IMG/VR virus record: IMGVR_UViG_2778261058_000014
Span: 1-11,490 of that record
DNA: 11,490 nucleotides
Direction: 5' to 3' (one strand)
From: a virus
Taxonomy: Duplodnaviria > Heunggongvirae > Uroviricota > Caudoviricetes
The translations under genes were made by a program, and so were the position numbers. Positions 1,414-3,767 of this stretch are shown here, piece after piece (the stretch's first letter is position 1; every line of letters starts with the position of its first letter). Under the pieces are notes generated by a model. That model saw nothing but the letters and a program-made list of their open reading frames with translations, was not told where the DNA came from and made no database searches.

Positions 1414-1700
1414 ACCTTAGGAAATCTTAGGGGCTGGTTGACACTTTCCGGCTTAAGACCTTAACAAATCTTAACATCGCAGGTTGACACACTTGACACT
1501 TTTTCGCGAAAAACCTTATCAAACCTTAGCATTTCTAAGCATGGCAACTTGACACTTTTCGCGATTTTTTCGGCTTTTTGACGTGGTAAATCTGGCGAAA
1601 GGCCAGTAATGGCGCGGCTTACAGCGAGGTTGACACTTTTTCGCGTTCAGAGTGTAAAGTGTCAACCTGGCAAGCTGCTCAACTTGACACTTTTTGATGT
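1414..1700. repeat. dense repeat array: TTGACACTTT(T)TCGCG-type units (at least 5 direct and 1 inverted) interleaved with (A)ACCTTA / AATCTTA units
   Basis: Read directly: TTGACAC units at 1438-1452, 1484-1490, 1493-1508, 1549-1563, 1630-1645, 1684-1698 and inverted at 1657-1666; ACCTTA/ATCTTA units at 1414-1431, 1452-1479, 1510-1540. No ORF explains the region. Confidence 0.75.
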
Positions 1701-2227
1701 CATTGATGGTCTGATTTTTCCCATTCAGCCAGGGCGTTTAGCCCGGCTTCACTCCATGATTCCAGTTCATCGGGATAATCACCTGCAACATAGCAGAGTT
1801 CGCAACGCAGCATACGAATTGCCAGCCTGGCATTACCTCGCAAATTGTATTGTTCAAAGTAATGCTGCCCGTCGCAATCCTCAAGGCAGATAGCACCATC
1901 ATCAAGAAAGTGCACTTCCCAGCCTAATTCCCCGGCTGCATCCAGCACACGCTGCTGTATGCCCTCGTCCGTTGCTGGCGCAGGAATTTTACCGCCTCTG
2001 GCCTTAACTGCTTTCCAGAACTCGCCCCACGTCATTTCCAGCGTTCTCTCTGGCCACATTTCAGAAACTGTGTCTTTTCCCTGTGCTGGTGGGCTGTTCC
2101 GCTGCTCTGTCGCTTCCACATCGATTTTTTTACCGGACATGACCACTTCGCCTTTCTCGATCCAGTCGTAAACTGTCTGGCGGCTTACGCCTTTGTGTTT
2201 GGCATATTCTGCCTTACTCATCAGCAT
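1700..2227 (-). CDS. Nu1/TerS-like N-terminal HTH protein, 175 aa; candidate packaging-redirecting (Rpp-like) or small-terminase-like DNA-binding protein
   Basis: N-terminus SKAEYAKHKGVSRQTVYDWIEKGEVV mirrors the lambda Nu1 winged-HTH (KKQLADIFGASIRTIQNWQEQGMPV, recalled from memory). Start is 6 nt after the stop of the upstream gene; the repeat array begins at its stop codon. Confidence 0.6.
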   Translation of the reverse strand: MLMSKAEYAKHKGVSRQTVYDWIEKGEVVMSGKKIDVEATEQRNSPPAQGKDTVSEMWPERTLEMTWGEFWKAVKARGGKIPAPATDEGIQQRVLDAAGELGWEVHFLDDGAICLEDCDGQHYFEQYNLRGNARLAIRMLRCELCYVAGDYPDELESWSEAGLNALAEWEKSDHQ

Positions 2228-2233
2228 TATGAC

Positions 2234-2905
2234 TCACCCTTCTTTTTCCAGTTGAGCCAGCCGCCCGGATATTTCTTCCAGTTTTTCCAGGGCTGGCTTG
2301 CAGGCCGCATCAATAACGTCCCGGACCATTCCGGCAAGCTGTTCTTCTGCTGTCGGCGTTGTTACTTCCACGCCCGATGGTTTCCCGCCCTTATCCCAAA
2401 CACCAAGCGGCACGAGCGCAACGTGATCGATAAGAAATGGCGTACCCTCAATAAAAAAATTGTCCTCGCCCATTACATCAGGAACTTCTGCCCCACCTGA
2501 GGCACCACAAAACACAACCGACGGACTGGTGGATACCTCCCCTCGGGCTTTCTGGATGTAATCGATGATTTCCTGCCCGTAAATCCGGCATACGCCCCAC
2601 ACCTCGTCACCGCGAATATACGGCAACATGACGGTGCCAATAATGCGCGAGCGTTCGCCCACGTCTTCAAGGGTTTTGCTTTCGGGATGGTCGATAATGA
2701 CGGGTACTCCGGCGCAACGTTCCAGGAACTGCGGATTGAGATAAGTTTGCGGTGAACGCCAGACAAATTCTTTTTCTTCTGCGCGGTAGGCCATTCCGGT
2801 TCCTGTGATACGCAGGTTAACCAGCCACATGTTGGAAAACTGATAAGGCGACGGTAGCTGTCCGTCCCGAATCTGCTTCGCCGCCTCAATTTCTGTTAAA
2901 AGCAT
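2234..2905 (-). CDS. hypothetical satellite/phage protein, 223 aa, in the packaging/morphogenesis operon
   Basis: Clean ORF in operon context. Contains IIDHPE and FCGASGG motifs that could hint at a protease-like fold, but I cannot assign a family. Confidence 0.6.
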   Translation of the reverse strand: MLLTEIEAAKQIRDGQLPSPYQFSNMWLVNLRITGTGMAYRAEEKEFVWRSPQTYLNPQFLERCAGVPVIIDHPESKTLEDVGERSRIIGTVMLPYIRGDEVWGVCRIYGQEIIDYIQKARGEVSTSPSVVFCGASGGAEVPDVMGEDNFFIEGTPFLIDHVALVPLGVWDKGGKPSGVEVTTPTAEEQLAGMVRDVIDAACKPALEKLEEISGRLAQLEKEG

Positions 2906-2969
2906 AATGTTATCCGGTTATAAGCAATAAGCCCCGCCAAATCCGGCAGGGCTGAACTCAGCACGTTTT

Positions 2970-3554
2970 TCATGCCCCCGCGAGGCTTGCAACGTTAATT
3001 TTGACCAGGCGACGGGGAGGGATTTTGAAAGCACTAAGCCAGTTATTCGGATCCCCCTGATATTCAGTAATCCGCCGTCCGGCTTCATCCATTCTTACGG
3101 TTTTACGCAAATAGCCCGGCGTATTTTCCACAGCCCACTGAACACTGTCTTTTGCAGCCTGGTAAATCTGATCTTCCAGCACCGCCAGCGTTGCAGAATC
3201 TGAAACGGAACGAATATCCACATCACTGAATTTTTTAGCCAGCTTCTGTGCACCAATTAATGCACGCTTGCGGTAATCCATCGACTTTTCACCAGCAAAC
3301 GGGGCTGGAGCGCGACGGCCCATATTGCTGTATGCGGAATCCGCTTTAGCCTGGGCTTCTGCCAGTGAGGATTCATCTTCGACTGACGCGACGATGTTTT
3401 GATTCGCGTTATCCTCGTCTGCTTTTGTGAAATCCTGTGCGGGGATCGCATTCAGAATTTCGATAATCTCCTGCGGAGTGCTGCCCTGCGACTCTGACAG
3501 AGCGTTAACCACCTCCATCAGTTTTAATCGCAAATCTTCTTTGCTTGCTGGCAT
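2970..3554 (-). CDS. hypothetical protein, 194 aa (ORF-track GTG start at 3563; ATG at 3554 preferred)
   Basis: ATG at 3554 preceded by GAGGTG 7 nt upstream. Acidic, Ala-rich, helical-looking sequence; unknown function, possibly morphogenesis-related. Confidence 0.6.
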   Translation of the reverse strand: MPASKEDLRLKLMEVVNALSESQGSTPQEIIEILNAIPAQDFTKADEDNANQNIVASVEDESSLAEAQAKADSAYSNMGRRAPAPFAGEKSMDYRKRALIGAQKLAKKFSDVDIRSVSDSATLAVLEDQIYQAAKDSVQWAVENTPGYLRKTVRMDEAGRRITEYQGDPNNWLSAFKIPPRRLVKINVASLAGA

Positions 3555-3593
3555 TTTTACCACCTCTCTTTTTTCACCAAAAAATCACGACCA

Positions 3594-3767
3594 TCAGGCC
3601 GGACGTTCTACGGGATAAAGCGCCCGCTGCATTAAACGCCGGGCGACCTCATGAATGCTCGGAGCAATCCCCAGCGGAGAATTGCGGCGTTCCTCGTCCT
3701 GGATGCGCTGTAATGCTTCAATCTGATCACGAGCGAGTAAAACGGGTTTCACGCTGGCTTTTCTCAT
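3594..3767 (-). CDS. small putative ribbon-helix-helix-type DNA-binding protein, 57 aa, first gene of the packaging operon
   Basis: ATG at 3767 with AGGAG 8 nt upstream (track ORF uses a TTG at 3785). Pattern KPVLLARDQIEALQRIQ...SIHEVARRLMQRAL fits a strand-helix-helix layout. Confidence 0.45.
   Translation of the reverse strand: MRKASVKPVLLARDQIEALQRIQDEERRNSPLGIAPSIHEVARRLMQRALYPVERPA

Follow-up and report, generated by a model that had tools for sequence, protein, structure and literature searches.

What could a four-gene operon contribute to a phage satellite when it occupies the very place at which a known island of the same family carries its capsid and packaging genes? The operon was found on the minus strand, at 1700-3785, of the 11,490-nucleotide stretch analysed here (positions 1 to 11,490 of IMG/VR virus record IMGVR_UViG_2778261058_000014; hereafter the window), as four consecutive open reading frames (ORFs) for proteins of 57, 194, 223 and 175 aa; the last of these (p175) is followed by an array of short DNA boxes. 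The initial annotation had described four co-directional genes, and this is borne out both by ORF calls and by RefSeq, which annotates the same four genes in the closest island (E. coli FDAARGOS_1058, 98% identical). With about even confidence, we read the operon as the late module of a phage-inducible chromosomal island (PICI) of the EcCICFT073 family that would have been swapped for one adapted to phages of the Rac-SA53 type, pairing a putative Rpp-like packaging-specificity function with capsid interference by a scaffold and a protease.

When the window was examined by family and profile scans, it was identified as a Gram-negative PICI of the EcCICFT073 family carrying alpA, antA, a P4-type primase gene (domains D5_N, DUF5906 and Pox_D5), an iteron origin (ori), ProQ and PerC. 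The hallmarks of Gram-negative PICIs found were alpA, pri-rep with a downstream iteron ori, a unidirectional late zone and a length of about 10-15 kb, with int just outside the window; all window genes except a short block near 8640-9700 lie on the minus strand. In FDAARGOS_1058, the closest genome, the whole-window match covered 86% of the query in 3 pieces, and a tyrosine integrase stands at the boundary of the island, which is inserted between smrA and abgR. EcCICFT073 itself was placed at 1377930-1389000 of the CFT073 chromosome, with the order int, alpA, icd-like, DUF4222, primase, perC, small protein, capsid (c1499), decoration (c1500), 137-aa protein, 144-aa RppA, cos1 and 93-aa ORF. 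The alpA genes of the two islands are near-identical and the gene order is the same, so that the window represents a member of that PICI family with a different late module. The operon has a ProQ/FinO protein and a PerC-family activator encoded on its 5' side and a 59-aa ORF followed by a DUF4747 protein on its 3' side, and its position is that of the EcCICFT073 capsid/decoration/rppA/cos module. The 59-aa ORF (1227..1406, minus strand) lies 3' of the box array, is annotated in RefSeq and is 88% identical in the island of ETEC1734. Its two ends are similar to those of the 93-aa ORF located after cos1 in EcCICFT073 (C-terminal PYQWKKPDRPRR versus YHWKKPERLRR), which makes it an anchor for the positional comparison. 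That the element is a satellite, as first supposed, is borne out by the PICI gene set and the EcCICFT073-like order.

The 223-aa protein (2234..2905, minus strand) consists of a DUF2213 prohead serine protease domain and a C-terminal helix and passes the Pfam DUF2213 model with 28.1 bits (cut-off 22); the description of the 194-aa and 223-aa proteins as unassigned was therefore only partly right. Its AlphaFold model (predicted local distance difference test, pLDDT, 89) matched the T4 prohead protease gp21 (score 10.3), human cytomegalovirus assemblin (8.4) and the proteases of varicella-zoster virus (7.2) and Kaposi's sarcoma-associated herpesvirus (6.6), and this resemblance to gp21 and the herpesvirus assemblins confirmed the protease-like fold suspected from the sequence. 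His73, Thr126-Ser127-Pro128 and Glu153 were invariant in 27-28 homologues (down to 30% identity) and Asp160-His161 nearly so; we infer that His73 and Ser127 are the catalytic residues. Of the two motifs on which the protease suggestion had been based, IIDHPE holds the invariant His73 and stands, and GASGG falls in a variable stretch and is not conserved.

The 194-aa protein (2970..3554, minus strand; ATG at 3554, with an alternative GTG at 3563 giving 197 aa) belongs to the same ancestral gene product. Both proteins match phrog_6216, the 223-aa protein at positions 115-328 and the 194-aa protein at 402-544, and when 50,697 phage records were searched with tblastn, both were matched only within one fused gene, present in Rac-SA53 and in a few Klebsiella, Pantoea, Yersinia and Shewanella phages. 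In pairwise alignment the 223-aa protein is 54% identical to residues 1-226 of the 430-aa Rac-SA53 protein, and residues 39-187 of the 194-aa protein are 59% identical to its residues 280-422 (E 1e-56). The N-terminal 38 residues of the 194-aa protein are unique and absent from the fusion protein, the Ala/Glu/Lys-rich charged linker of the helper protein (about residues 227-279, ~50 residues, coiled-coil) is missing in the island, and the island gene order is inverted relative to the domain order of the fusion. Homology thus shows the two island proteins to be parts of one protease-scaffold protein, split and reordered, with the 223-aa protein as its N-terminal and the 194-aa protein as its C-terminal portion. 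Beyond the protease domain, the 223-aa protein still has the first helix of the linker.

In Rac-SA53, the gene for the 430-aa protein follows those for the small terminase subunit (TerS; Terminase_2), the large terminase subunit (TerL; Terminase_6N), the portal and a head-morphogenesis protein, and precedes those for a 205-aa protein and the major head protein. Lying between the portal/head-morphogenesis and major capsid genes, it has the place of a protease-scaffold. The phage orthologue thus adjoins both a portal and a capsid gene, and the island has neither (ORF and family scans of the window). The same split arrangement was observed in a Pantoea stewartii island at 63-68% identity, and the ratio of nonsynonymous to synonymous substitution rates (dN/dS) against that island was 0.14 for the 194-aa gene and 0.09 for the 223-aa gene (overall range 0.09-0.17). 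These low values indicate that the two genes are maintained under purifying selection and are not debris. Binding of capsid protein by the C-terminal domain of the 194-aa protein is an assumption, and the homology to helper-derived head-assembly proteins makes it reasonable to read the two products, as had been suggested, as capsid or scaffold interference factors.

Database names for these families are misleading. Members of the 194-aa family abound in E. coli, Salmonella and Citrobacter, and hundreds of their records are named 'NUDIX hydrolase' (S. Typhi CT18 among them); a NUDIX domain was not found in any 194-aa homologue examined. Many phage and metagenomic relatives (P0154-P0170, Klebsiella phage Chronis, Pantoea phage PdC23) have a NUDIX hydrolase domain fused N-terminal to the DUF2213 protein, and the name evidently spread from such phage proteins. 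The 223-aa family is often annotated as 'TolA' or 'cell envelope biogenesis protein', names apparently inherited from phage proteins that are fused or of low complexity. The present analysis corrects both of these widespread mis-annotations.

The gene for p175 (1700..2227, minus strand) is at the rppA position, between captured head genes and the conserved terminal ORF. The protein is made up of a winged helix-turn-helix (wHTH, residues 1-45), a disordered linker (46-55) and an alpha/beta C-terminal domain (60-170), and its homologues were found only in Enterobacterales, nearly all with generic names such as 'hypothetical protein'. Structure prediction (pLDDT 89), which had been suggested as a check, returned a wHTH of the TerS/RppC kind at the N-terminus and an orphan domain at the C-terminus. 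The wHTH matched mycobacteriophage Pukovnik Xis (score 7.0), a TerS DNA-binding domain (7lxs, 6.4), lambda TerS (6hn7_B, 6.2), BldC (6.1), P2 Cox (5.9) and RppC (6hn7_A, 5.8). Its best profile match was phrog_57, 'terminase small subunit' (residues 1-42, E 1.6e-7), and tblastn matches in phages were to TerS N-termini only; weaker hidden Markov model (HMM) matches were to a Cox-like excisionase (E 3.9e-4) and HTH_17. The noted resemblance of the N-terminus to the winged HTH of lambda-type TerS is thus upheld by the phrog_57 match and the structural match to 6hn7_B. In 49 homologues the putative recognition helix SRQTVYDW (S15-R16-Q17-T18-V19-Y20, W22) is invariant or nearly so.

Assignment of p175 to the Rpp type did not survive. 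When phmmer and a 49-sequence profile of p175 were run against all PDB chains (RppC 6HN7 included), RppC and Nu1 were unmatched at E<=10, and hhalign aligned p175 with RppA over 29 HTH columns at 26% probability. The C-terminal part of RppC comprises three helices with a long coiled-coil (PMC6739421), and the C-terminal fold of p175 is alpha/beta; among 1.84 billion representatives, only 18 clusters contained this domain. p175 matched no terminase model in Pfam or NCBIfam, and the TerS oligomerisation core was unmatched. With an orphan C-terminal domain and no RppC/Nu1 match, p175 is neither a member of the Rpp family nor a recognisable TerS. It was accordingly rejected as the TerS of the island, as no TerS model fits and one relative, in Pantoea, has a separate TerS gene. 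In Lelliottia wanjuensis (locus L020: 3386-4552, 5192-6361 and 7001-7171), two tandem paralogues and a truncated third were found to carry the p175-type HTH, 72-77% identical over 43 residues, fused to an unrelated C-terminal region of ~340 residues; the DNA-binding module of p175 has thus been reused with other partners.

Directly after the p175 stop codon lies the AAAGTGTCAA(S)(Y) box array (1438..1693), arranged in two clusters around a conserved core. It contains six exact 10-mers AAAGTGTCAA(S)(Y), five direct and one inverted (1656-1665), and an extra heptamer at 1484-1490. All seven heptamers of the window fall within these 256 bp and none elsewhere in it. When 15 loci of other genera were scanned (Escherichia ruysiae, Pantoea, Rouxiella, Raoultella, Buttiauxella, Lelliottia, Pseudocitrobacter and others; p175 identity down to ~40%), 43 heptamers were counted in the 460 bp after the p175-homologue gene (6.9 kb in total) versus 5 in the other 211 kb, so that the stretch behind the stop codon is enriched 263-fold. 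The invariant recognition helix fits a box sequence that is unchanged across homologues. In the spacer between the clusters, the conserved core GCCGCGCCATTACTGGCC (1601-1618) is kept in closer relatives; it is followed by a CTGGC-N5-GCCAG palindrome and recurs as CC(A/G)TTACTGG in the Escherichia ruysiae, Raoultella and Pantoea loci. The core might serve as a cut site or be bound by a second protein. Repeats of the form CTTA(A/G)-N4-6-CTTA(A/G) at 1409-1540 (e.g. CTTAGAAATGCTAAG and CTTAACAAATCTTAAC) are interleaved with the AAAGTGTCAA boxes and may bind a further factor, for instance IHF or the small protein of the first operon gene. We propose that 1438-1693 is the p175 binding site and a packaging-recognition site.

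In the 50 kb of Rac-SA53 no heptamer (GTGTCAA/TTGACAC) was found, with ~6 expected from length alone, which may reflect avoidance or a general rarity of TTGACA-containing words. The absence makes the site satellite-specific, like the cosB of EcCICFT073. In that island, direct and inverted ATGTCCGGTT repeats start right after rppA and are followed by cosN and then by the 93-aa ORF; the repeats presumably belong to the PICI-specific cosB, which was mapped to cos1 of EcCICFT073 (PMC6739421). Since the array stands at the cosB/cos1 position, p175 and the array are the positional counterpart of RppA and cosB. Two further searches were of no help. A pattern scan of viral contigs with the core as GCCRTTACTGGMTTTG was too unspecific, with unrelated contigs among the matches listed, and a 41-nt match (window 1588-1628, 88% identity, E 6e-3) to Stx-converting phages was rejected as probably due to chance, being intergenic in the early region and not near terminase.

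The captured genes point to the probable helper. The Rac-SA53-type head module was present in 88/5426 complete E. coli genomes and in at least 5 of the 15 genomes best matching the window (PapRG-04-4, EC11, ETEC4090, ETEC1732 and ETEC1734). In ETEC1734 (L157, 2822000-2871900), 6 kb separate a Rac-SA53-type prophage at ttcA from the island at smrA/abgR; the protease/scaffold copies of the island are only 53-59% identical to the copy in this co-resident prophage. The ETEC1734 island has two extra genes between the protease and p175 genes, one rac52-like (81%) and one lytic transglycosylase/tape-measure-like (44%), both with homologues in Rac-SA53. Several independent Rac-SA53-like late genes therefore tie the island lineage to phages of this type, one of which, having a Terminase_2 TerS and a T4-type TerL, is the likely helper. 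The initial annotation had implied a lambda-type helper terminase, to which the captured late genes run counter. The neighbouring Rac-site prophage of FDAARGOS_1058 was rejected as a helper on account of its head module, which is P22-like and not DUF2213-type. Rac-SA53-type prophages carry LT-II and other toxins. The smrA/abgR island site is only ~6 kb from the Rac attachment site (ttcA), a closeness of possible importance should in situ packaging by the prophage take place (lateral transduction).

Comparison of related islands showed that the late cargo is modular. p175, its boxes and the small first protein recur as a set, with genes between them that vary by locus and encode a 90-aa protein, a 261-aa protein, a 608-aa protein, or a 339-aa protein plus the 194/223 pair. 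Because the cargo varies, the p175/box unit and the protease/scaffold pair represent separate functional units.

Under the reading that we favour, p175 would bind the seven AAAGTGTCAA boxes and nucleate a complex on island DNA, a step that its conserved recognition helix and the box distribution make probable. Its orphan C-terminal domain would then contact the helper terminase, so that island concatemers are packaged; recruitment of a helper terminase, probably of the headful type, is possible at slightly less than an even chance. An unrelated C-terminal domain, acting at another site, would in this way take over the task that Rpp and cosB have in EcCICFT073. The packaging hijack first proposed is deduced here from the rppA/cos position and the conserved box array, and descent from Rpp is not retained. 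The 194-aa protein, for its part, might compete with or substitute for the capsid-binding end of the helper scaffold, as CpmB/Rcm do in Staphylococcus aureus pathogenicity islands (SaPIs), and the detached 223-aa protease might process the resulting shells or disturb helper maturation. In helper procapsid assembly the two products could serve as a short mimic of the scaffold, exert a dominant-negative effect or redirect head size as a pair, and so bias assembly toward the ~12.5-kb island; an effect of the 194/223 genes on capsid size is suggested only tentatively. It is doubtful whether everything holds together, that is, whether p175 and the boxes form an Rpp-independent packaging class with a pac-like, satellite-only site and the 194/223 genes encode the first prohead protease and truncated scaffold by which a satellite of Enterobacteria remodels or sabotages helper capsids.

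Several observations weigh against the proposal of a swapped, Rac-SA53-adapted late module. The C-terminal domain of p175 had no structural neighbour in PDB or among viral models, and its interaction with a terminase is pure inference for a domain without similarity to Rpp, TerS or any viral protein. In one Pantoea element (L004), tail-like genes and a Terminase_2 TerS gene lie directly upstream of p175; with a TerS gene beside it, p175 is not a simple stand-in for TerS. p175 with its boxes is also met with quite other cargo, or hardly any, between the small protein and p175; its function therefore does not depend on the protease/scaffold genes and need not be linked to helpers of the Rac-SA53 type. 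A scan for lambda cosN (GGGCGGCGACCT, <=3 mismatches) gave chance-level matches only, and no cut site was found. The array region shares no DNA with Rac-SA53 beyond chance 12-15-mers, and the same was observed for the CFT073 lambdoid prophage. In FDAARGOS_1058, which matches the window most closely, the head module of the Rac-site prophage is of another, P22-like kind, and the co-occurrence count of island and head module ignores strain relatedness, ETEC1732 and ETEC1734 being near-duplicates. Finally, deletion of c1499 or c1500 in EcCICFT073 gave no phenotype, and capsids were of full size (PMC6092414).

This last result would be expected if the 194/223 genes were passively captured helper late genes, serving as back-up copies or recombination substrates and acting at most as a dominant-negative without a change in capsid size. 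We regard this as somewhat unlikely. The 'late zones' of Gram-negative PICIs do often carry captured phage genes (PMC10111431), what lies between the small-protein and p175 genes differs greatly from island to island, and variant islands hold further Rac-SA53-like tail genes. Passive capture is hard to reconcile with a split, reordered and linker-less arrangement that is kept, together with an intercistronic hairpin, from E. coli to Pantoea, with dN/dS values of 0.09-0.14 and invariant His/Ser, and with the 53-59% identity to the co-resident prophage, which indicates an old, separately evolving lineage and not a recent capture. For p175 the main alternative is a Cox/Xis/AlpA-like regulator or recombination-directionality factor, with the array as an operator or architectural site for control of the 59-aa ORF and cargo, or for excision. 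The fold does not discriminate between the Cox/Xis and TerS types, weak HMM matches to a Cox-like excisionase and HTH_17 were obtained, Cox-type proteins bind arrays of short directly repeated boxes, the array lies within ~1 kb of the island end in minimal islands, and two Pantoea homologues are named 'Repressor' in UniRef. We nevertheless consider it unlikely, as the strongest sequence match is to TerS N-termini (phrog_57, E 1.6e-7 versus 3.9e-4 for the Cox-like model, and TerS genes only in the phage tblastn), the island already has AlpA beside int, an ORF separates the array from the island end (with >2 kb of cargo besides in the window), and the gene is at the rppA position beside captured head genes.

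That p175 is a true divergent Rpp, heterodimerising with a lambda-type (Nu1) TerS and redirecting it to cos, is very unlikely in view of the missing sequence or profile match to RppC and Nu1, a C-terminal fold class different from the published structure (PMC6739421), the lack of a lambda cosN within 3 mismatches above chance, and late genes that point to a non-lambda helper with a Terminase_2 TerS. Multiple short repeats adjoining the gene of a DNA-binding protein could also be the iterons of a replication origin with p175 as initiator. We give this scarcely any credence, since the array region has 47% GC and is not AT-rich and a classical PICI origin is already present at 4800-5155. There, ~14 GGTAGACAGTT iterons in both orientations surround AT-rich DNA (34% GC) directly 3' of the primase gene, and this region is the probable replication origin of the island. 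Iterons directly after the primase gene are the usual layout of PICI origins.

The first operon gene encodes the 57-aa protein (3594..3767, minus strand; ATG at 3767), and the strong ribosome-binding site reported for it was located as AGGAG at 3776-3780, 8 nt 5' of the ATG. Its homologues sit 5' of p175 homologues in 7 loci of related islands. The protein had been called ribbon-helix-helix-like, a label that finds no backing: no match was obtained in Pfam (E<=10), NCBIfam, PHROGs or a PDB profile search, nor by hhalign against Arc and CopG. The tandem upstream terminators were recovered as two hairpins, each followed by a U-run, between the perC stop codon (3968) and the operon (terminator scan and RNA fold, z = -3.3). 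The first after perC (3939..3965, minus strand; RNA fold) has a GGCCGGGA-UUUU-UCCCGGCC stem followed by U6, and the second occupies 3892..3924 (minus strand; terminator scan and RNA fold). A sigma-70 consensus was not found 5' of the operon, and PerC, encoded just upstream in both this island and EcCICFT073, may activate the operon promoter. Between the 194-aa and 223-aa genes, the same two methods placed a GC-rich hairpin at 2930..2953 (minus strand); at the equivalent place, Pantoea locus L012 has a hairpin and T-run of different sequence. By terminating some transcripts or by affecting mRNA stability, this hairpin may set the proportion of 194-aa to 223-aa product; it would leave the protease and p175 less strongly expressed than the 194-aa protein.

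Some features outside the operon were also observed. The island end (window 1-894; 7402-8001 in locus L001) consists of the gene for the DUF4747 protein and an overlapping 199-aa hypothetical gene, both missing from relatives such as PapRG-04-4. DUF4747 is mentioned in papers on prophage-encoded defence, and the block may be defence cargo in a PICI accessory hotspot; the operon proteins and the DUF4747 cargo had no match in PADLOC. Residues 172-254 of the AntA-family protein (window 10044-10844) matched the PADLOC candidate defence family PDC-S22 (E 3.8e-9). At 8255-10051, a 598-aa minus-strand ORF with an implausible Ser/Cys/Leu-rich translation overlaps plus-strand ORFs (8643-9119 and others), the AT skew goes positive, and the closest genome differs; this is probably a divergently transcribed insert (YlcI/YnfO-like), and the 598-aa gene is probably not real. 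An Rfam scan of the whole window returned no RNA families.

PICIs belonging to the EcCICFT073 family occur commonly in E. coli, Salmonella (Typhi among them), Citrobacter, Klebsiella and Pantoea, and carry virulence and defence cargo from strain to strain. To our knowledge, the only packaging mechanism known for Gram-negative cos-type islands is that of Rpp with lambda-like helpers, and we know of no description of satellite biology for Rac-SA53-type helpers. The parts of the proposal that lend themselves to testing are p175 with its 256-bp site, a candidate helper resident in sequenced enterotoxigenic and Shiga toxin-producing E. coli, and the protease/scaffold pair, for which point mutants can be predicted.

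When the operon is set beside known systems, partial likenesses are found to several of them. SaPI TerS and Ppi confer packaging specificity and act against the helper TerS in headful systems; a point of likeness here is the TerS gene beside the p175 homologue in Pantoea L004, and the differences are that p175 matches TerS models only in the HTH and has no similarity to Ppi, and that the window has no TerS gene. With the assemblin-fold prohead proteases (T4 gp21, PDB 5JBL; herpesvirus assemblins; DUF2213/XkdF), the 223-aa protein shares the fold and the conserved His/Ser. Unlike them, it comes from a satellite lacking both portal and capsid genes and is detached from its scaffold/targeting domain, and its catalysis is predicted only. 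SaPI CpmB/Rcm share the C-terminal region of the helper scaffold and compete for capsid protein, leading to small capsids (PMC6893505, PMC12409344), and the 194-aa protein likewise shares the C-terminal region of its helper's scaffolding protein. It differs in being a clear homologue (59% over ~145 residues) and not a short motif, in deriving from a protease-scaffold fusion, in having a separate, apparently active prohead protease gene alongside, and in its Gram-negative host.

The captured late genes of Gram-negative PICIs (c1499 and c1500; PMC6092414, PMC10111431) resemble the present ones as helper-type head genes located between perC and the packaging gene, and in these as in helper-embedded PICIs the cargo varies among related islands. 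Here, a protease-scaffold instead of a capsid or decoration protein was taken from another type of donor phage, split, reordered and conserved in that state. The positional counterpart is RppA/RppC with cos1 of EcCICFT073 (Fillol-Salom et al. 2019, PMC6739421). From Rpp, p175 (175 aa versus 144-153 aa) is set apart by the lack of detectable homology outside ~29 HTH residues and by an orphan alpha/beta C-terminal fold in place of three helices with a coiled-coil dimer; from Rpp systems in general, the window differs in having no lambda cosN and a likely helper with a Terminase_2 TerS and T4-type TerL, not Nu1/A-type. What they share is the island family, a last late-zone gene placed after captured head genes and before a conserved terminal ORF, an N-terminal wHTH of the TerS/MerR type, and short direct and inverted repeats that start right after the stop codon, at a site absent from the presumed helper. 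Beside Rpp, which serves with lambda-like helpers, this operon would represent a second, unrelated solution at the same locus.

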